From positions 1,216,001 to 1,280,000 of the forward strand of contig CBDCYI010000011.1 of assembly GCA_965224085.1 (NCBI GenBank): a stretch of DNA of 64,000 nucleotides, written 5' to 3'. Position 1 is the first letter of the stretch, and each line of letters opens with the position of its first letter. Position numbers and translations under genes: made by a program. The notes below the pieces were generated by a model. It saw only the letters and a program-made list of their open reading frames with translations, made no database searches and was not told the DNA's origin. Of the stretch, positions 1 to 25,243 are shown piece by piece. Source of the stretch: Candidatus Marinacidobacterales bacterium (lineage in GTDB: Bacteria > Acidobacteriota > Vicinamibacteria > Marinacidobacterales > SMYC01).

Positions 1-1016
1 AGCGACTTCTGTCGAGGGTACGCGTACAGGTCACCCTTGCGGACACCCGTACGGATCTTGTGTGAGGGTAGGGCCAAAGGGCGACTACCCCGCTTGATCT
101 TGTATCCCAAGAACTCGAAGCCGTGTGCAACGTGAACGATACGAGTCTTCTCCACGTTCAAGGTTACACCCAACGTCGTAAGGATCATCCGGGCTTCGGC
201 CAGCACCTTCTGGGCCTCTGCCTTGGTGCAGCATGTCACGACCCAGTCGTCGGCATACCGCGTCAGGCGATAGCCACGATGGCGCATCTCCCGATCAAAC
301 GGAGTCAAAAGGACGTTACTTAAGATCGGTGAGACCACACCGCCTTGCGGTGCACCTTGCTCGGTCGGGAGCCGTCTCCCCTCCGCCATGCAGCCTGCTT
401 TGAGCATGCTGCGAATAAGACGAAGGACGCGACCATCCGACACTCGCTTGGCAACAAGAGCGAGGAGCTTCTCATGGTCCACAGTCCCAAAGAAATTGGA
501 AAGATCCGCATCCACGATCCACTCGTAACCCTCTTCGATCTCTTGCCAGATCTTGCGTAAAGCATCCTTTGTCGATCTTCCTCGTCGATATCCGAAGCTG
601 GCGGCATCGAACACCTGCTCGAAGATCGGTTCCAACCGGTTCTGCAGTGCCTGCTGACACACGCGGTCATAAACGGCCGGAATGCCGAGCGGGCGGAACT
701 TTCCCGGTTGTCCAGCCTTGGGAATGAGTTTCTGCCGAACAGGTAGTGGACGATAGGCATCGGTCTTGAGCTCCTCATGGAGTCGGTTGAGGTGCGCATC
801 AAGCTGCTCCTCAAACTCGTCCAGAGTTTGTCCATCGATGCCACCGGCACCCTTGTTCCGCTTCACTCGGTTCCAGGCCAGCTCCAAGTTCTTCCGCTTG
901 TATATCTTGTCCACCAGAGAGTGGACCTTCCTCTCACCCGTTGGGTTCAACCAGGCCGACAGTTTCCTCGGACGATCACTTCTGGGTCTTTCACTAAAGG
1001 AACTTATCCGCGTCAT
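1..1016 (-). CDS. ltrA: Group II intron reverse transcriptase/maturase (inner intron, left copy; cut by the window edge)
   Basis: Mirror of 4501-5516; contains RPLGIP, PQGG and YADD. Confidence 0.9.
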   Translation of the reverse strand, partial: MTRISSFSERPRSDRPRKLSAWLNPTGERKVHSLVDKIYKRKNLELAWNRVKRNKGAGGIDGQTLDEFEEQLDAHLNRLHEELKTDAYRPLPVRQKLIPKAGQPGKFRPLGIPAVYDRVCQQALQNRLEPIFEQVFDAASFGYRRGRSTKDALRKIWQEIEEGYEWIVDADLSNFFGTVDHEKLLALVAKRVSDGRVLRLIRSMLKAGCMAEGRRLPTEQGAPQGGVVSPILSNVLLTPFDREMRHRGYRLTRYADDWVVTCCTKAEAQKVLAEARMILTTLGVTLNVEKTRIVHVAHGFEFLGYKIKRGSRPLALPSHKIRTGVRKGDLYAYPRQKS

Positions 1017-1639
1017 CGCCCTTACTCGTCTGTCATCCTTGTTGTCACCAACCACCTTTGCCAGCCCCCTTCCCCAGCCCACTCGGCTGCCGATCTCTCG
1101 ATCACACGACTTTCACCGCGCTTCAGGTACTATTGGGCTGTCCGACGACTCACCCGGCTTCACTTCCCATTTCGCTCTCGCTTATAGGGTCGCTTATCCC
1201 GACGCCACTCGGGAACCCAATGAGCCCTCCTGGGGTCACGTCCAGATCTTCCGTACCGTGCCGTCCGCAAACACCTTGATTCGGTGGGTGAATGAGAACG
1301 CCTTCGCCTCCATAGTGCAGGCTCGACCTTGCCCCACCTTTGGCCGACCGGTTCATCAACGGGGTCGCCCCCTCGATTACGGCCCGGTACTGCTCCGCAT
1401 ACCCTTCAGATTCCACCTCGCGGTGGACACCCTGTCCTCCAGTTGTCCAGTGGACAGAACCCGAACTTAGGTACATCCCCTTGGCAGTAGCCATCGTTTC
1501 CAACTTCGTGCCCGTTTAGGGTTCTCCTTATCCGCGTTCCCCGGCCAGCGAGGCGTTACCCCCGCTTTTGGATATGGCGCTCCTCATCCGAGCACCAGAG
1601 GGACTTCAACCTTCCTGATCTGGACGCTGCCCAGCACAC
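1..1639 (-). mobile_element. Inner group II intron, left copy (partial)
   Basis: Mirror of 3878-5516; GTGTG start at 1639 on the minus strand. Confidence 0.9.
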
Positions 1640-2035
1640 ACTATGAATCGGTCCGACTTCCGGCCTCAGCTCAGCACCGCGCTTCGGTTTTCCCTTGCGC
1701 GACGCCCCCATCGGTGACCATTCCGATGGACCCGGCCGGACCTCCTGGGTCCCGAAAGGAACTCTTCGTACGTGATGTGGTCCACGACCCCGGCGGAGCG
1801 TAACCATCTCGCGATAGCGATGGCCCACATGCTGCCTTCATTGACGGGAATCAACTCGGCCTTCCGCGATATTCAGCATTTCGAGGCTACATTCACACAC
1901 CCTGCACGACCCCTGTCTACGCTTCGGACCCCGCGTTGCCACGACGCCCGCAAGACTCGGTCCCGACCTGTCCGCTACGACTTTTGGTCGGATTGGACTT
2001 CCACCCATAGGCTCCTTTCAGTTAGCCCAGCGCAC

Positions 2036-3481
2036 TCCCGCCGGCTGTTGAATTTGGGGTAGCGGCGGCTCCTTGGCCGGCCTAAGAATAGGTCTGCCAA
2101 ACAACCGTCTCCAGAGGGGGACAAGGAGCCACCAATGCCTAGGAAATCAAAGAAGCCAGTAAGAAAGCAAACGCACTCGCCTACGGGCAAGGTAGTTGGC
2201 CAAGCCGGTCAGATACTGCTACCGATGATAGCTGGGATCGCGGCCACGAAGGCGGATCTGACGGAATGGGTGTACGAGCAAGGACTGACAGCTCTGCACC
2301 TACTGCTCAGAGAGGACGCCGAGGAGGTCGCGGGGCTCAAGGGCAAGCACGAGAAGGAGCGAACTCATAACCACTGGGGGAGCACGAACGGAGAGCTGAG
2401 CTTCGGTGGTCGTCGCATCCAAGTGTCGCGACCTCGAGTGCGTTCGAAGTCTGGTGAGGAGGCGTCGCTTCCACACTTCGAAGCCTTCCGCGAAGAAGAC
2501 CCGCTTCCAGAGCGAGTGTTGAATCAGATCTTGGTGGGGGTATCGACCCGAAATTACGAACGGAGTCTGGACAAACCCGCGGCCAAGTTGAAGTCTCGTG
2601 GCACGAGCAAGAGTGCCGCCAGCCGTCACCTCGTAAGCCAGACGACGAAGAAGCTCGAGCAATACCTGTCTCGGCGGCTAGAGGAGTACGAACTTGCGGC
2701 ACTGATGATGGATGGCCTTGAGGTGGCCGGCCAGACCGTCGTCGTAACTCTCGGTATCACAATAGATGGAACGAAGGTGCCCCTGGGTATATGGCTGGGC
2801 TCGACGGAAAACTCTCGGGTGTGCACCGCGATGTTGCAGGACCTTCTCGAGCGAGGCTTGCGCGTCGATGAGTCGATTCTCTGTGTAGTGGACGGAGGCA
2901 AAGGTATCCGCAAGGCACTCGTCGACGTGTTGGGGGATCTCGCGGTCATCCAAAGGTGCCAGATCCATAAACTCCGAAATCTTCGCTCGTACCTTCCCAA
3001 GTCTCGTCACGCCTACGTGCTCCAGACGATGAAGAAAGCCTACAAGTGCAAGAGTGCCGACAAGGCGCGCAAGCGACTTCAGGCATTGGTGTCGTGGCTC
3101 GAGCGAAACAGCCACGATGAAGCTGCCGGAAGCCTTCGCGAAGGGATGGAAGAGACGCTCACGGTCGTGAAGCTCGCTCTGCCCGAGTTACTTCGCCAGT
3201 CTCTTGCCACGACGAACGCCATTGAGAATCTCAACGGAACCATTCGAAGAGTATCGAGAAACGTCAAGCGTTGGAAGAGTCCTTCGATGGTTCGCCGATG
3301 GACCGCTCTCGGCGTCGTCACGGCGGAGAAGAAGTTCCGGCGTATCAAAGGCTATCGCCATATGGGCGCTCTCGTTCACGCGCTTAGAAGCAAACAGAAA
3401 TCTCTTGACAGCGATGAGTTTGCTGCCTAAGAGTATTCACAGGTGCCGCCGCTACCCGACCAAATTCAACAGCCGCCGGGA
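2036..3481 (+). mobile_element. IS256-family element core; both TIRs interrupted by introns, and the outer 7 nt of the right TIR (CATCCCC) are displaced to 7408-7414
   Basis: Imperfect inverted repeats 2036-2069 (tcccgccggctgttgaatttggggtagcggcggc) and 3445-3481 (gccgccgctacccgaccaaattcaacagccgccggga); removing the intron restores ...CGGGA|CATCCCC. Confidence 0.88.
2135..3430 (+). CDS. IS256-family (Mutator-type) DDE transposase
   Basis: 431 aa; GVSTR, MMDG, VVDG, QRCQIH (CxxH) and TTNAIENLN motifs. Confidence 0.95.
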   Translation: MPRKSKKPVRKQTHSPTGKVVGQAGQILLPMIAGIAATKADLTEWVYEQGLTALHLLLREDAEEVAGLKGKHEKERTHNHWGSTNGELSFGGRRIQVSRPRVRSKSGEEASLPHFEAFREEDPLPERVLNQILVGVSTRNYERSLDKPAAKLKSRGTSKSAASRHLVSQTTKKLEQYLSRRLEEYELAALMMDGLEVAGQTVVVTLGITIDGTKVPLGIWLGSTENSRVCTAMLQDLLERGLRVDESILCVVDGGKGIRKALVDVLGDLAVIQRCQIHKLRNLRSYLPKSRHAYVLQTMKKAYKCKSADKARKRLQALVSWLERNSHDEAAGSLREGMEETLTVVKLALPELLRQSLATTNAIENLNGTIRRVSRNVKRWKSPSMVRRWTALGVVTAEKKFRRIKGYRHMGALVHALRSKQKSLDSDEFAA

Positions 3482-3877
3482 GTGCGCTGGGCTAACTGAA
3501 AGGAGCCTATGGGTGGAAGTCCAATCCGACCAAAAGTCGTAGCGGACAGGTCGGGACCGAGTCTTGCGGGCGTCGTGGCAACGCGGGGTCCGAAGCGTAG
3601 ACAGGGGTCGTGCAGGGTGTGTGAATGTAGCCTCGAAATGCTGAATATCGCGGAAGGCCGAGTTGATTCCCGTCAATGAAGGCAGCATGTGGGCCATCGC
3701 TATCGCGAGATGGTTACGCTCCGCCGGGGTCGTGGACCACATCACGTACGAAGAGTTCCTTTCGGGACCCAGGAGGTCCGGCCGGGTCCATCGGAATGGT
3801 CACCGATGGGGGCGTCGCGCAAGGGAAAACCGAAGCGCGGTGCTGAGCTGAGGCCGGAAGTCGGACCGATTCATAGT

Positions 3878-5910
3878 GTGTGCTGGGCAGCGTCCAGATC
3901 AGGAAGGTTGAAGTCCCTCTGGTGCTCGGATGAGGAGCGCCATATCCAAAAGCGGGGGTAACGCCTCGCTGGCCGGGGAACGCGGATAAGGAGAACCCTA
4001 AACGGGCACGAAGTTGGAAACGATGGCTACTGCCAAGGGGATGTACCTAAGTTCGGGTTCTGTCCACTGGACAACTGGAGGACAGGGTGTCCACCGCGAG
4101 GTGGAATCTGAAGGGTATGCGGAGCAGTACCGGGCCGTAATCGAGGGGGCGACCCCGTTGATGAACCGGTCGGCCAAAGGTGGGGCAAGGTCGAGCCTGC
4201 ACTATGGAGGCGAAGGCGTTCTCATTCACCCACCGAATCAAGGTGTTTGCGGACGGCACGGTACGGAAGATCTGGACGTGACCCCAGGAGGGCTCATTGG
4301 GTTCCCGAGTGGCGTCGGGATAAGCGACCCTATAAGCGAGAGCGAAATGGGAAGTGAAGCCGGGTGAGTCGTCGGACAGCCCAATAGTACCTGAAGCGCG
4401 GTGAAAGTCGTGTGATCGAGAGATCGGCAGCCGAGTGGGCTGGGGAAGGGGGCTGGCAAAGGTGGTTGGTGACAACAAGGATGACAGACGAGTAAGGGCG
4501 ATGACGCGGATAAGTTCCTTTAGTGAAAGACCCAGAAGTGATCGTCCGAGGAAACTGTCGGCCTGGTTGAACCCAACGGGTGAGAGGAAGGTCCACTCTC
4601 TGGTGGACAAGATATACAAGCGGAAGAACTTGGAGCTGGCCTGGAACCGAGTGAAGCGGAACAAGGGTGCCGGTGGCATCGATGGACAAACTCTGGACGA
4701 GTTTGAGGAGCAGCTTGATGCGCACCTCAACCGACTCCATGAGGAGCTCAAGACCGATGCCTATCGTCCACTACCTGTTCGGCAGAAACTCATTCCCAAG
4801 GCTGGACAACCGGGAAAGTTCCGCCCGCTCGGCATTCCGGCCGTTTATGACCGCGTGTGTCAGCAGGCACTGCAGAACCGGTTGGAACCGATCTTCGAGC
4901 AGGTGTTCGATGCCGCCAGCTTCGGATATCGACGAGGAAGATCGACAAAGGATGCTTTACGCAAGATCTGGCAAGAGATCGAAGAGGGTTACGAGTGGAT
5001 CGTGGATGCGGATCTTTCCAATTTCTTTGGGACTGTGGACCATGAGAAGCTCCTCGCTCTTGTTGCCAAGCGAGTGTCGGATGGTCGCGTCCTTCGTCTT
5101 ATTCGCAGCATGCTCAAAGCAGGCTGCATGGCGGAGGGGAGACGGCTCCCGACCGAGCAAGGTGCACCGCAAGGCGGTGTGGTCTCACCGATCTTAAGTA
5201 ACGTCCTTTTGACTCCGTTTGATCGGGAGATGCGCCATCGTGGCTATCGCCTGACGCGGTATGCCGACGACTGGGTCGTGACATGCTGCACCAAGGCAGA
5301 GGCCCAGAAGGTGCTGGCCGAAGCCCGGATGATCCTTACGACGTTGGGTGTAACCTTGAACGTGGAGAAGACTCGTATCGTTCACGTTGCACACGGCTTC
5401 GAGTTCTTGGGATACAAGATCAAGCGGGGTAGTCGCCCTTTGGCCCTACCCTCACACAAGATCCGTACGGGTGTCCGCAAGGGTGACCTGTACGCGTACC
5501 CTCGACAGAAGTCGCTCCAGCACTTCAAGGATCAGATTCGGCGACGGACCTGTCGCAAAGCTCCTGTGAGTACGCAGCAGCTAATCGACGAGATCAACCC
5601 GGTTATTCGCGGTTGGGGTCTTTACTATCATAAAGCTCACGTCCGCAAGCTCTTCGCGCGTCTCGATCGTTGGATCCTGCGACGTATCTGGTCGCATCGG
5701 TTCAAACGCTGGCGCTGTCGGGGGTGGAAGCAGCTCCCGGAGCGTCAGCTCTACGATGAGATGGGCCTCGTACGCTTTGTCTTCCTGATTCCTTCCATCA
5801 AGCCGCGATGAATAATCCAACCTTTGTGAAAGCCGGATACGGGAAAACTGTATGTCCGGTTTGAGCGGCGGACGGGGGTCAGCGCTGCGGTGCGCCCCCT
5901 CCGACCCGAC
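3878..5910 (+). mobile_element. Inner group II intron nested in domain III of the outer intron
   Basis: GTGTG at 3878; domain V gaaagccggatacgggaaaactgtatgtccggtttgagcgg and end ccgacccgAC at 5910; its removal restores catagt|actgaggaag; EBS1 ACTATG (4201-4206) pairs with CATAGT. Confidence 0.92.
4501..5811 (+). CDS. ltrA: Group II intron RT/maturase (inner intron), no obvious HNH endonuclease
   Basis: GAGGIDG, RPLGIP, FGYRRGRS, DADLSNFF, PQGG, RYADD, FLGY and RGWGLYY maturase region; start codon uncertain (4435 or 4501). Confidence 0.95.
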   Translation: MTRISSFSERPRSDRPRKLSAWLNPTGERKVHSLVDKIYKRKNLELAWNRVKRNKGAGGIDGQTLDEFEEQLDAHLNRLHEELKTDAYRPLPVRQKLIPKAGQPGKFRPLGIPAVYDRVCQQALQNRLEPIFEQVFDAASFGYRRGRSTKDALRKIWQEIEEGYEWIVDADLSNFFGTVDHEKLLALVAKRVSDGRVLRLIRSMLKAGCMAEGRRLPTEQGAPQGGVVSPILSNVLLTPFDREMRHRGYRLTRYADDWVVTCCTKAEAQKVLAEARMILTTLGVTLNVEKTRIVHVAHGFEFLGYKIKRGSRPLALPSHKIRTGVRKGDLYAYPRQKSLQHFKDQIRRRTCRKAPVSTQQLIDEINPVIRGWGLYYHKAHVRKLFARLDRWILRRIWSHRFKRWRCRGWKQLPERQLYDEMGLVRFVFLIPSIKPR

Positions 5911-5937
5911 ACTGAGGAAGCTATCGAAGGCAACGAG

Positions 5938-7317
5938 ATGGTGGAGGGAAGGGATCGGCCTGGAGGGAACCCACGGGAGAGGGCTAAGGTCCGGACACAG
6001 CGCCGGGTCGCCTTACCGCCAAATCTCACGCGGGTGAACGAAGCAGCGAAGCGAGATAGAAAGGCTCGGTTCACTGCGTTGCTGCATCACGTGGATCACG
6101 AAGCGCTCTATCGAGCGTTTCGTCGGTTGAAGCGCAGCGCAAGCGCTGGTGTCGACGGAGAGACTGTCGCCGATTACGAGAAGAACTTCGTGAGCAACAT
6201 CAAGGATCTTTGCTCGCGGGTACACGCCGGTCGCTACCGACCACTACCGGTGCGGCGCGTGTACATTCCTAAGTCGGATGGCGGAAAGCGCCCTCTTGGC
6301 ATCCCCGCACTGGAAGACAAGATTGTCCAAGGAGCGGTAGCCGAGGTTTTGAGCGCCGTCTACGAAGTCGATTTCATCGGGTTCTCGTACGGGTTTCGGC
6401 CCGGACGGAGCCCGCACCAAGCGTTGCACGCGCTCCACACCGCGCTCATGACGCAACGCGTGAACTGGGTTCTCGACGCGGACATCCGCAAGTTCTTCGA
6501 CTCGGTGGACCACGAGTGGTTGATGCGGATGCTTTCGCACCGGGTCGCCGACAAACGCATCCTTCGACTCATCCGTCAGTGGTTGCGAGCCGGCGTACTG
6601 GAGAAAGGAGAGTGGAGCGAGACAACTGAAGGGACACCGCAAGGGGCAGGTGTGAGCCCGCTCTTGGCTAACGTCTTTCTGCACTACGTTCTAGATCTGT
6701 GGGTTCATCGATGGCGCCGGCTCGAAGCACAAGGCCGTATTTCCATCGTGCGATACGCTGACGACTTCGTCATGGGCTTCCAGCATCGGACCGATGCCAG
6801 CAGGATGATGAGAGCGCTCAAGGAGCGACTAGCCCGATTCGGGCTTGCGCTCCACGAGAACAAGACCCGTTTGCTCGAGTTCGGGAGATTACCTTCCTTG
6901 TCACGCGAGCAACGGGGCCTTCGGCGGTGTGCGACGTTCGCTTTCCTGGGTTTCACTCATTATTGTGGGAGAACCCGCGATGGCCGTTTCGTCGTGAAGC
7001 GCAAAACGCAGAGCCAGCGGCTACGAGCCAAACTCAAGTCGCTACGGCTTCGCGCGAAGCAACGTATGCATGCTCCAGTCGCCGTCCAGCATCGCTGGCT
7101 TTGCCAGGTGCTGCGCGGTCACTACGCGTACTACGGACTTCCCAGCAACATCCGCTCTCTCCAATCCTTTTCTGAGGAGGTGACACGGTTGTGGTTTCGA
7201 AGCCTTCGTCGGCGGAGTCAGCGCCGAATGACCTGGCCTCGTTTTCACTTGTTGTTGGAGCGCTTTCCCCTACCAGTCCCTCACCTCACTCCGTCCCGAC
7301 TACCTTGCCTTGTCTGA
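5938..7317 (+). CDS. ltrA: Group II intron RT/maturase (outer intron), no obvious HNH endonuclease
   Basis: RFTALLHHV, RPLGIP, YGFRPGRS, DADIRKFFD, PQGAG, RYADD, FLGFTH and GHYAYYG; the track start 5890 lies in the inner intron, so the true start is at or after 5938. Confidence 0.95.
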   Translation: MVEGRDRPGGNPRERAKVRTQRRVALPPNLTRVNEAAKRDRKARFTALLHHVDHEALYRAFRRLKRSASAGVDGETVADYEKNFVSNIKDLCSRVHAGRYRPLPVRRVYIPKSDGGKRPLGIPALEDKIVQGAVAEVLSAVYEVDFIGFSYGFRPGRSPHQALHALHTALMTQRVNWVLDADIRKFFDSVDHEWLMRMLSHRVADKRILRLIRQWLRAGVLEKGEWSETTEGTPQGAGVSPLLANVFLHYVLDLWVHRWRRLEAQGRISIVRYADDFVMGFQHRTDASRMMRALKERLARFGLALHENKTRLLEFGRLPSLSREQRGLRRCATFAFLGFTHYCGRTRDGRFVVKRKTQSQRLRAKLKSLRLRAKQRMHAPVAVQHRWLCQVLRGHYAYYGLPSNIRSLQSFSEEVTRLWFRSLRRRSQRRMTWPRFHLLLERFPLPVPHLTPSRLPCLV

Positions 7318-7414
7318 TTTCGGGTATACCTTCAGGAGGAGCCGAGTGCGGGAAAGCCGCACGCTCGGATCTGTGAGGGCGAAAGCCGAATGGCTGAGCT
7401 ACTCGACCATCCCC

Positions 7415-7821
7415 CTCACGGAAGCCGAGGCGGTGAACTTCCGCGAATACCTGTCGCGGGGTGGGTTCGCGATTTTCGATGACTTCGACGGCGAATGGGA
7501 TTGGCAGGTCTTCGAAGCGAACATGGCCGAGGTGCTCCCTGGCCGGCACTTCGAGCTCTTGGAAGAATCCGATCCCATCTACCAGAGTTTCTTCTCCATC
7601 GAGGATCTCGACGTCATCACGCACCCTATGGGTCACGCCTATCCGCCGATGTTTTTCGGCATCCGCGACGACGCCGGCCGCCTGCAGGTCGTGGCCAACT
7701 TCAACAACGACATCGGGGACTACTGGGAGTGGTCGGACCAGGGTTGTGGTACCCGATTGACTTGTCGAACGAAGGCTACAAGCTCGGGGTCAACTACGTG
7801 ATTTACGCACTCACGCATTAG
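7415..7821 (+). pseudogene. 3' half of a DUF4159-like gene disrupted by the IS256/twintron insertion
   Basis: REYLSRGGFAIFDDF...NNDIGDYWEWSD then (frameshift near 7745) SNEGYKLGVNYVIYALTH; begins right after the restored IS end. Confidence 0.75.
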
Positions 7822-22929: not shown

Positions 22930-24085
22930 GTGCGTCCAGCTAAGGCTGGCGTGTTCAGTGGGAGTCAGTCCCACCGGGGCAAGAGCCAGAAGCCCCGTAG
23001 CTTGGATAGCAGGAAGGAGGGAAACCGAATGACCTGAAGCCTATCGACAAAGCCATCGTAAGGGATGGTGAGCGAGTCATCGGGCCGTAACGCAAGTGAA
23101 CGCAGAAGTAGCCTCGAAAGAAGTCACTCCGGAGGCCGAGCCCTTGTTTGGGGGGTGAAGGCAGCATGGGACGTCGCAGATTGGCCGAAGCGTCCTCGCA
23201 CTCCGGCGGGGTCGCAGCGACAGCACGGTGACAAGGACACGCTAAGCAACTGGAGAGGCCCTCCTCGTCCCATAGGGAGACCCGTGAAGCAACGCCGTCA
23301 GTATAACCGGCATCCCCCGGGAAATCGGACGGCAGGCGAGAGGGAGTCGGAGGGGTCCATATTAGCGATGAAGCGGAGTAATGCCCGTGGAGCGAAGGGG
23401 CCCTACTGTACAAGGAATCTTTTGACCAATGGGAGGCAGAGGCGATGACACAAGCGCCGATAGAGCTGCAAGACCTGAGACGAAAGATATATGCGAAGGC
23501 GAAGGCGGATAAGCGCCATCGCTTTTGGGGCATCTACGTCCACATCTGCAAGGAGGAAACGCTTCGCAAAGCCTACGACCGGGCAAAGGCCAACGGCGGC
23601 GCCCCGGGAATTGATGGGGTGACGTTCGAGTCCATTGAGGCCTCGGACGGAGGGGTTGCGAGTTTCGTCGAGCAGTTACGGGACGAGTTGGTGAGAGACG
23701 ACTACCGGCCCCAGCCGAATCGGCGCAAGGAGATACCCAAGGACGGCGGCAAGAAAGTCCGCGTGCTGGGTATTCCCACGATCCGAGACCGGGTGGTGCA
23801 AGGTGCCGTCAAGCTCATCTTGGAGCCCATTTTCGAGGCAGACTTCCAACCAGGCTCGTTTGGGTACCGGCTTAATCGGAGTGCTCATCATACGATACAT
23901 CGGGTCGTGGTGAGCATCACTCAGGAAAAGACACGCGTCATCGATTTGGATTTGAAAAGCTACTTCGACAATGTCAGGCACCACATATTGATGGAGAAAG
24001 TGGCTCGTAGGGTCAGCGACCGACAAGTGCTTCGCCTGTTGAAGTTGATGCTCAAAGCGAATGGCAAGAAAGGAGTTCCTCAGGG
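22930..24085 (+). mobile_element. Third group II intron, 3'-truncated, antisense to the kinase gene
   Basis: GTGCG at 22930; gtagcctcgaaa and gggagtcggaggggtcc domain I-III motifs; no domain V/VI. Confidence 0.88.
23445..24085 (+). pseudogene. ltrA: Group II intron RT, truncated at PQG (no YADD)
   Basis: GAPGIDG, RVLGIPTIRDRVVQ, DLDLKSYFD, GVPQG, then unrelated sequence. Confidence 0.9.
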
Positions 24086-25243
24086 CTCGGCCGCATTGTG
24101 CGGGTAGGCGTTCCAATCGTCGATGCGCCCTTTCCACGCCGGGCGGTAGTCGAGCCGGGCATGGTTGCCGTAAATCGTGTAGGTGAATGTTGACACCAGC
24201 ACACACAACGACGCCCGCGGTTTGCCGTGAAGTGCGCACACGAAAAAAGGCATCGCGTCGTAGTGGTCACCGCACACGATACGCGCGGCGTACACGCCGC
24301 AGGGGAGATCCTCCGGGATGGTGAACGAGAAGTCCGTCTTCCAGCCGAAGTCATAGATGTCGTCTTCGTGAAAGTGAATCGCGCCGTATTGCCCCGGTGC
24401 GTGACGCCAGCACATCTCGTTACCGTCCCAGCGCGCGCCGGTCATAGCACGCGCCGGCAGGTTGATGAGCTCACCGTGGAGCGCCAAAGCGGTATCTTCG
24501 ATGCGGGTGGTCGAGATACCGCGGCTGAAGTCCCATGCGGCCACCGGAGGGTCGAGGGGCGTGTCGGCGGAGAGAGCTTCCGCAGTGAACGCACGAGCGA
24601 AGATACGAGGGGAGTCGATCTTTCCGTTGTAGAGGTGGCTTGCGGTATCCTTCGTGAACAGGATCTGGTCAACGGCTGACGTGTCCGCGTCCGTGTGCAT
24701 CGTGATCCAGAACTCGCTCGCCACCCCGTCCGACAACGGCAGGCTGCCGACTCGGAGCTCTCCCGCGTCGGCATGAAGCGCCAGAAACACCCGGTACCAG
24801 CGTCGATGGATGAGAGCAGAGCCGGTGCTGACCTTTGCGCCCCCCACGCGCCCCTCGATGCTCCCGGTACTGTCGAGCGACAAGCGGGCGAGCGACTCGG
24901 TGCCGGCGCCCAAACACATGATTACCTGCTCGCCCCCTCCGACAGCGGTCGGCCAGATGTCGGCAACCAGAGTGAAGGAATCCATCGACGGGAGACGGGC
25001 GGCGGTTTTGATGAGCGCATACGAGCCGGGTGAGAACGATTGCTCGCGAGAGGGATAGCTGCCCTCGAACTCGGACGCTACCGGATTCTCGATGAGACCG
25101 GGACCGGCCGGATTGGGATCGGCGCATACCACCCGCACCAGCCGTGCGTGGTAAGGATCGCGCGAAAGGCTGCTGACCTTGAACTCGATGCTTTCGCCGG
25201 CGCGCACCGACAATCGATTGGTATAGCCGATCAATGAAAGCAT
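24086..25243 (-). pseudogene. N,N-dimethylformamidase large-subunit-like protein, 3'-truncated
   Basis: GYTNRLSVRAGESIEFKVSS, GAIHFHEDD, STFTYTIYGNH; ends at the junction with the truncated intron. Confidence 0.8.

Follow-up and report, generated by a model that had tools for sequence, protein, structure and literature searches.

A group II intron nested in a group II intron: evidence for a lineage specialised in targeting a motif in domain III of its fellow group II introns

The DNA analyzed here, henceforth the window, is a stretch of 64,000 nucleotides from a Candidatus Marinacidobacterales bacterium (C11:1216001-1280000 of a 6.87-Mb, 12-contig assembly), which near its start displays mobile DNA nested at three levels: an IS256-like insertion sequence (IS), an outer group II intron and, within the latter, the inner group II intron that is the subject of this work. 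The inner intron occupies 2033 nucleotides (nt) of the forward strand (3878-5910), starts with GUGUG (3878) and ends with ...CCCGAC (5910). Its domains 5 and 6 (D5/6; the other intron domains are likewise abbreviated D1 to D4) match the Rfam model RF00029 at 5828-5910 with 41.3 bits against a gathering score of 40, and D5 starts with AGCCGG. It thus shows the termini and core expected of a group II intron, namely a 5' GUGYG, a 3' AY and the catalytic AGC of D5/6. Its intron-encoded protein (IEP) of 436 amino acids (4501-5811, forward strand) combines reverse transcriptase (RT; RVT_1, 8.9e-43) and maturase or X (GIIM, 1.3e-15) domains, the pairing required of a mobile group II intron, with the YADD motif encoded near 5263-5274; no endonuclease domain was found in this protein with Pfam. 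Upstream of this gene, an RNAalifold consensus of 41 relatives delineates D2 as a long covarying helix (4291-4371, forward strand), and D3 (4377-4452, forward strand), with the basal helix CAGCCC/GGGCUG, is placed by both RNAalifold and folds.

The outer intron (3482-7407) starts with GUGCG, ends with ...CUCGAC and is interrupted between T3877 and A5911, from where it resumes with ACTGAGG. On the forward strand, its 5' segment (3482-3877), as delimited by the RF02005 alignment and folding, comprises D1, D2, the junction J2/3 (GUCGGA) and the 5' strand of the D3 basal helix (CCGAUUC, 3866-3872). Its 3' segment (5911-7407) comprises the rest of D3, including the 3' strand of the basal helix (GGAUCGG, 5952-5958), the IEP open reading frame (ORF) and D5-D6 (7337-7407). 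The outer D1 matches RF02005 with 140.9 bits at 3516-3739 and the outer D5/6 matches RF00029 with 53.2 bits at 7337-7407. These flank the inner intron on either side, and five uninterrupted outer copies elsewhere in the genome are colinear across the site, as expected of a twintron. The outer IEP ORF, which encodes an RVT_1 domain, runs from the ATG at 5938 to 7317, in frame with a listed ORF start at 5890; the latter is a GTG inside the inner intron that is in frame by chance. Since the first ATG falls inside the outer D3, the true start of this protein is uncertain. A D1 loop of the outer intron holds a candidate exon-binding sequence 1 (EBS1), UCCCG (3668-3672), complementary to CGGGA, the end of its 5' exon.

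Blastn searches recover seven copies of the inner intron from the genome, all 100% identical. Eleven copies of the outer intron retain the D3 site and six of these carry the inner intron, at the same exact position; the five uninterrupted copies lie at C11:193426, C11:484180, C4:257880, C5:683802 and C5:2148288. In two cases (C4:252505-259775 and C5:2148288-2155231), the twintron sits at one end of an IS and an empty outer intron at the other. The sequence statements of the original prediction, which had placed the inner intron at CATAGT|A of the outer one, all hold. The seventh inner copy (C9:853583-855615, within locus L003) lies in a different host of the RF02003 type, here termed host B, which is related to a third group II intron in the window (22930-24100, forward strand; RF02003 type by Rfam, truncated at its 3' end within the RT ORF). 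The host-B site reads ...GGGTCGGTAGT|AGCGTTG, i.e., GGTAGT|AGCG. A 99%-identical copy of host B (C4:1590845-1591737) has a precise empty site and keeps its GUGCG start (C4:1590829-1591737), and a more distant copy on C5, reading CGTAAT|A, is likewise empty. The host-B copy in L003 (C9:853134-856093) is itself ORF-deleted, having lost ~25 nt at the start of the intron as well as most of the RT ORF; hence, this inner copy sits in a dead host. The exact boundaries of the inner intron are confirmed by the five empty outer copies, and also by contigs from sequencing runs that skip precisely its 2033 nt, from GT to AC. The seven identical copies together with the precise empty sites imply that the intron has probably been mobile recently.

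The target immediately upstream of the inner intron, its intron-binding sequence 1 (IBS1), is CAUAGU (3872-3877, forward strand), of which ACTATG (4201-4206) is the exact complement. The latter lies in a hairpin (4195-4211, forward strand) with the stem GCCU/AGGC and the loop GCACUAUGG, a loop that the RF02001 model also places at the tip of a hairpin, in a sub-threshold alignment. From an alignment of the 5' 640 nt of 41 non-redundant family members, each stretch of 5-6 columns was scored for antiparallel pairing with all stretches of the exon positions -26 to -1. In this blind scan, the pairing of 4201-4206 with -1 to -6 ranked first by a wide margin: the mean paired fraction is 0.98, and each position shows 2-3 types of pair; a seventh pair, between G4207 and -7, forms in 85% of the sequences. 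At least five independent compensatory cases were found: CGTAGT/ACTACG in L067, L068, L069 and L110; CGTAAT/ATTATG in L058; CGAAGT/ACTTTG in L053; AATGAA/TTCATT in L083; and UACG/CGUA in L075. The stem of the hairpin itself is seen in six complementary forms, and uncompensated mismatches are restricted to a few copies (L052, L078 and L061). By this covariation, and at the level of sequence comparison, ACUAUG is proven to be the true EBS1 of the inner intron, as had been proposed.

A second part of the proposed recognition, in which CGGTC (4167-4171) would act as EBS2 opposite GACCG (-14 to -10), did not survive the same scan. CGGTC is invariant in 40 of the 41 sequences while the exon positions facing it vary, giving a mean of 2.9 out of 5 pairs; pairing is complete only in the window, in L028 and, with one wobble, in L026. 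Moreover, it is partly helical: in the Rfam alignment a CCG just upstream of and overlapping it pairs with a CGG near 4250, which renders C4167 helical, and this helix is confirmed by two-sided changes in L058 and L097. Among the 41 relatives, no other run of columns pairs consistently with positions -7 to -26; hence, no EBS2-IBS2 pairing of the IIA or IIB type was found. Another pairing seen by eye, between GAAUC (4240-4244) and GAUUC, fails in L026 and L027 and was discarded. For the 3' exon, U4246 (forward strand) is a tentative EBS3 pairing with the A at +1, based on a single covariation event: L075 alone has A in its place, and its 3' exon begins with T.

We then located the target within the structure of the host. 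The RNAalifold consensus of the 41 clade members displays the succession D1, D2 helix, GUCGGA, D3 and then the ORF at 4501, and in it the inner intron's own version of the motif, AAUAGUA, lies directly 3' of the 5' strand of the D3 basal helix. Further, 28 non-redundant hosts, with the window's third intron left out, were folded as unconstrained minimum free energy (MFE) structures after removing the inner intron in silico. In 21 of these, positions -12 to -6 pair with a downstream segment, and all 21 helices differ in sequence: that of the window is CCGATTC/GGATCGG (3866-3872 with 5952-5958), others being GAGGTTC/GAACCTC, GTGCCCC/GGGGCAC and AGGCCC/GGGTCT; 13 of the 28 hosts have a downstream complement for all seven positions. 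Single-sequence MFE folds had suggested J3/4 or the 3' strand of D3 as the location, a placement that the clade consensus and the host folds overturn. Thus, the prediction that the site lies in domain III was borne out, and the folds show IBS1 to begin with the C that closes the D3 basal helix (C3872, its last pair) and to continue with the first five nucleotides (AUAGU) of the 5' strand of the internal loop.

The relatives of the inner intron were collected by its protein alone, so that the search was blind to the insertion site. They comprise 76 loci on metagenome contigs and 13 from named genomes, the latter spanning Planctomycetota, Myxococcales and Alpha-, Beta- and Gammaproteobacteria: their sources are two Singulisphaera genomes, a planctomycetotan and a myxococcal metagenome-assembled genome (MAG), Ectothiorhodospiraceae and another gammaproteobacterial MAG, Caballeronia, Paraburkholderia and Acetobacteraceae, to which two weak matches are added. 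Intron ends were recognised by their similarity to the 5' 120 nt and the 3' 110 nt of the inner intron, which yielded 47 5' and 57 3' junctions. Of the 5' junctions, 45 fall at a C(A/G)UAGU|A site, variants included: the exon ends with CATAGT in 21, with CGTAGT in 17 and with a one-base variant in six (CGAAGT, CGTAAT, CACAGT, CATGGT and, twice, CATATT), and in one the contig is cut after TAGT. Only two (L075, CCTACG; L083, AATGAA) lie elsewhere, in unrelated sequence. The 3' exons start with A in 55 of 57 cases, the exceptions being L075 and L095. The hosts share a consensus beyond this motif, with G-N-C-R-G-(A/C) at about -18 to -13 and ...GAAG-hairpin-GGAG(C/G)GAAGG downstream.

That these targets are group II introns emerges from the domains around them. 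In 15 of the 20 metagenome loci whose upstream flank is long enough, the junction is preceded on the same strand by an Rfam D1 family, namely RF02005 (three), RF02001 (four), RF01999 (two) and RF02003 (six). The other five of these 20 show no Rfam D1 match upstream, namely L039, L061, L071 and the two non-intron loci L075 and L083. Among the 11 genome loci scanned, a D1 match was found in four and an additional downstream D5/6 in five (L027, L029, L031, L033 and L035). The hosts therefore span at least four Rfam D1 families, and the comparison shows repeated independent insertion at one site across a broad clade. Further, RF01998 matches the region just past D1 in hosts of the RF02001 type, and its consensus holds the upper-case string AGAAgUCAGCAGAgGcCAUAGU; since this includes the target, an established intron model itself records the target as conserved. 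Additional RF02003 D1 matches are seen in L067 (4132-4273) and L110 (3710-3835 and 6514-6651), right after or inside the inner-type intron, which suggests nests of at least three introns in some metagenome contigs.

A phylogenetic tree of the IEPs (IQ-TREE in quick mode, LG+G4; 46 rows, rooted on the outer IEP) was computed from tblastn segments of at least 380 residues without a stop, omitting the long branches L035, L061 and L110. In it, the introns homing into D3 group together as one clade, of 43 rows (SH-aLRT 99). Nested in a 13-row group (100) of this clade is the sister pair (95) of L075 and L083, the two members outside introns; hence, these two represent derived retargeting events. 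As judged by eye, their sites lie between short complementary segments (CGATG...CATCG and GGCC...GGCC), resembling the site in the D3 stem.

Outside the clade, the sister pair L093 and L094 and the more distant L098 (33-42% identity to the inner IEP) start 4-5 nt after short hairpins. Such insertion after hairpins is typical of class C introns, and among proteins of solved structure the inner IEP is likewise closest to IIC RTs (the GsI-IIC RT 6ar1 with 1.4e-68 and 7uim with 2.8e-63), ahead of the IIB-type RT 6me0 (2.4e-48) and LtrA. The inner intron thus resembles class C in having no endonuclease domain, in its closest RTs, in having no apparent functional EBS2 and in the hairpin-associated sites of its sister lineages. 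However, with respect to site, EBS1 length and EBS2, the missing EBS2 is the sole trait held in common: the insertion lies inside D3, 5 nt past the 5' strand of the basal helix, and EBS1 forms 6-7 base pairs (bp). Likewise, the EBS1 of 6-7 bp, the ribozyme of ~720 nt, the 34-nt D5 matching RF00029 and the target inside a stem rather than after a terminator all depart from the class C introns described in PMC3753933.

Taken together, we conclude that 3878-5910 is very probably an active or very recently active retromobile intron with an endonuclease-less RT/maturase, belonging to a widespread clade whose members normally home in group II introns. Its apparent specialisation for the conserved domain III motif of other group II introns, as originally predicted, is strongly supported by the single site shared by nearly all junctions across these host families. 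The likely course of its homing would be as follows. The excised inner intron RNA would recognise the DNA C(A/G)TAGT|A, which encodes the last pair of the basal helix of D3 together with the adjoining 5' strand of the internal loop, via the EBS1-IBS1 duplex of 6-7 bp (ACUAUG(G), 4201-4207), probably assisted by the one-base EBS3-IBS3 pair (U4246 with A at +1), and would then reverse-splice at the recognised site. The variable positions -7 to -13 would be read by no covarying EBS2; an extra cue could come from the local stem or from the motif formed by the D2 end and J2/3 (GUCRGA, at about -18 to -13), either of them recognised by the protein or the ribozyme. Retrohoming would occur at replication forks, as expected for an endonuclease-minus protein. 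As the motif is conserved across structurally different hosts, a single EBS1 would open many intron classes to insertion.

Beyond this, we tentatively entertain a wider reading, which may well hold though we stop short of calling it probable: that the D3 internal loop of introns of any class is the ancestral and almost the only habitat of the clade, reached with one EBS1, no EBS2 and a structural or protein cue; that these 'hyperparasitic' introns, by splitting a catalytic-effector domain, render the splicing and spread of the host dependent on the removal of the inner intron, an order of splicing also suggested in the original prediction, with consequences here for the IS that carries the host intron; and that the whole constitutes a three-level hierarchy of parasites with co-variation of target and EBS1 (CAUAGU/ACUAUG versus CGUAGU/ACUACG).

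Vacant sites bear on what such recognition involves. The inner intron's own motif (AATAGT|ACC, 4383-4391) and the D3 site of the third intron (CATATT|AGC, 23358-23366) read as originally stated and are both unoccupied. The original prediction had attributed these vacancies to mismatches with EBS1, an explanation at odds with other observations: five of the eleven outer sites, all perfect matches, are empty, and GGTAGT in host B (four Watson-Crick pairs, a wobble at -5 and a mismatch at -6) is occupied although it pairs worse than AATAGT, with its mismatch at -6 only. Across the clade, AATAGT is the own site in 27 of 41 members, five of its six positions pairing with that member's EBS1 in 24 of these; an own site fully pairable with its own EBS1 is found in three of the 41 (L027, L028 and L058). 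Elsewhere in the genome, a ~1.94-kb repeat, probably another IS, is present in at least nine copies (e.g., C4:662270-664200), each with an unoccupied GACAGG-N9-CATAGTA.

The setting of the twintron in the window adds the third level of nesting. The IS256-like (Mutator-family) element (2036-3481, forward strand, not counting the outermost 7 nt of each end) was identified by the Pfam match of its transposase ORF at 2135-3430 (Transposase_mut, 4.5e-42), and its imperfect terminal repeats include 2036-2057 and 3460-3481. It is flanked by two twintrons facing outward, which account for the near-perfect inverted repeat of 2057 nt at the start of the window (1-2057 and 3460-5516); the one mismatch noted by eye (3476 versus 2041) lies in the IS terminal repeat. 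Of the second twintron, the window holds, on the reverse strand, the 5' segment of the outer intron (1640-2035: D1, D2, J2/3 and the start of D3), running outward from the left end of the IS, with its D1 matching RF02005 (140.9 bits, 1778-2001, minus strand) and blastn in agreement. There follow the 5' 1639 nt of the inner intron (1-1639), recognised from the inverted repeat and blastn, the remainder lying beyond the window start (the complete copy is C11:1215607-1217639 by blastn). On the right, the outer intron is followed on the forward strand (7408-7422) by the IS tip CATCCCC (7408-7414) and the 8-bp target-site duplication CTCACGGA (7415-7422). An uninterrupted right end of the IS, at C4:895319, reads ...CCGGGA CATCCCC; the outer intron adjoins IS sequence in 10 of its 11 copies, CATCCCC follows it in all eight copies with an intact 3' end, and the same 8-mer flanks the left and right ends (CTCACGGA in the window, CCCGGCAG at the C4 locus). 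The shared tip and the matching 8-mers therefore place the outer intron 7 nt inside each terminal inverted repeat of the IS, at GGGA|CATCCCC, at both ends. The IS with its two twintrons forms a composite of ~9.3 kb bounded by the 8-bp duplication CTCACGGA, and may have been immobilised by the splitting of both its terminal repeats. At C11:486098-487614, IS positions 1-446 abut positions 430-1500 of the 3' part of the outer intron, a junction that points to rearrangement or recombination between elements. The third intron, for its part, breaks off within its RT ORF near 24100 and gives way to an unrelated gene on the minus strand.

Several points weigh against the specialisation proposed above, or blunt the evidence for it. 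The D1 of the inner intron matches RF02001 (group-II-D1D4-3) at only 27.9 bits, below the gathering score of 32. The collection of relatives used six peptide patterns from one protein and may have missed divergent members with other habits; many of the loci are short metagenome contigs, and some duplicate one element. A shuffle control lends the D3 helix modest support, with a mean of 6.25 of 7 pairs observed against 5.51 with shuffled downstream sequence; the MFE fold lacks the basal helix in seven of the 28 hosts, and among the 21 helices a few are likely to be spurious. At positions -13 to -21, moreover, conservation in the hosts and a requirement of the intron are inseparable. CATAGTA is unoccupied at 145 sites of the genome, those in the ~1.94-kb repeat included; EBS1 and EBS3 alone thus do not explain the specificity, and some determinant beyond them must restrict insertion to D3. 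Finally, the sequencing runs do not prove splicing. L003:1-5033 was found in runs from 10 studies, and contigs of three RNA runs and one run of unknown kind were checked for the joint; the exact joint 1499>3533, i.e., the 2033-nt skip from GT to AC, occurs in one X17 contig (sides of 80 and 406 nt, three differences), in one X18 contig (shorter side 32 nt) and, weakly (25 nt), in two X1 contigs, X17 and X18 being RNA runs and X1 the run of unknown kind. The inner ORF is not covered in X17 and X18, to which no weight attaches. We discarded these as proof of splicing: the empty host-B copy at C4:1590845-1591737 could supply them, and each spliced form of the twintron exists in the genome as DNA too. 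Since the empty allele exists as DNA, the contigs confirm the boundaries but are no proof of splicing.

The surplus of empty CATAGTA sites also speaks for a different account of targeting, which we regard as quite possible, though not as the likelier outcome. Under it, structure or protein would do most of the work, recognising the motif at the D2 end and J2/3 or the stem flanking IBS1, much as class C introns use a stem-loop, and EBS1 would merely fit the loop. The want of EBS2 covariation, the IIC RTs as nearest solved relatives of the IEP, the positions of L093, L094 and L098 just past short hairpins and the complementary segments around the L075 and L083 targets are all in keeping with it. 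However, EBS1 has been retargeted with every change of site (L083, L075, L058, L053 and the L067 group), so that the pairing is necessary and tracks the target, and the stem reading draws on a handful of sequences without statistics. It is, on the other hand, very unlikely that a single ancient twintron, inherited or moved as a unit, has given the impression of repeated homing to D3. Twintrons can move as composites, as discussed in PMC2882425, and with all outer copies identical and all inner copies identical in this genome, some of the six twintrons may have moved as 3.9-kb units. Yet the hosts belong to at least four Rfam D1 families and differ in their D3 helices, identical inner copies occupy two unrelated host types in one genome alongside empty sites of both types, and the two ends of a single IS can differ, with the twintron in one and an uninterrupted outer intron in the other. 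The data already suggest, too, that the trees of hosts and inner introns are incongruent. Likewise, the window opens inside a 2057-nt near-perfect inverted repeat of a kind that assemblers can create; but the same units lie on four large contigs with different flanks and 8-bp target-site duplications, the same junction recurs in independent genomes and metagenomes, and contigs from public runs span both junctions, rendering an assembly artefact, or a chance ectopic insertion without specialisation, exceedingly improbable.

Twintrons and the homing of introns into introns are already established phenomena. We found no account of a lineage homing into D3 across intron classes in the literature searched; older papers and supplements lay outside that search and may hold an earlier mention. 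The closest parallels come from Thermosynechococcus elongatus, where ORF-less F3 introns (e.g., TeI3c) reside inside TeI4 introns (Mohr, Ghanem and Lambowitz 2010, PMC2882425). A shared trait is that introns of that genome target insertion sequences too. There, however, the inner intron lacks an ORF, is a relative of its host and is confined to one genome, and insertion takes place in domain IV, between the first and second ATG of the host's IEP ORF. In contrast, the inner intron described here has its own RT, inhabits several unrelated structural families of hosts in several phyla and targets the internal loop of D3. The domain I twintron of Trichodesmium (Pfreundt and Hess 2015, PMC4649490) and the plant mitochondrial twintrons in domain IV or I (PMC7049729) are alike in being group II introns inside group II introns, with sequential splicing expected or shown, and differ in being single loci, with no lineage that has a conserved target. 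Nested introns are also reviewed from Methanosarcina acetivorans in PMC4424553.

The target in the window and its relatives differs from that in M. acetivorans in being a motif of the ribozyme core, in D3 of diverse bacterial introns. It lies upstream of the host ORF, and thus the pattern of T. elongatus or M. acetivorans, in which a related intron is entered in domain IV or in its IEP ORF, does not apply. Going by the title of their 2003 paper, Dai and Zimmerly reportedly described homing of this latter kind, into the ORFs (domain IV) of related introns in an archaeon. RmInt1 is an endonuclease-minus intron whose natural home is an insertion sequence, ISRm2011-2; the outer intron resembles it in residing in an IS, and differs in occupying both terminal inverted repeats, 7 nt from the tips and facing outward. 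Two survey pipelines drop or miss twintrons according to their own descriptions (PMC4028801 and PMC8919778). Elements of the kind of the inner intron are therefore undercounted in censuses that lose nested introns.

As a rule, group II introns evade selection by taking cover within other mobile DNA. In the present case, a whole lineage appears to have found safe harbour in a structurally constrained ribozyme motif: the host intron cannot easily mutate the D3 target away, and one exon-binding sequence would reach many classes of introns in many phyla. The clade would thereby offer a natural system for the study of target finding without EBS2, as well as a test case for whether splicing has to follow a fixed order once domain III is interrupted, or whether the interruption curbs the host intron and its IS.

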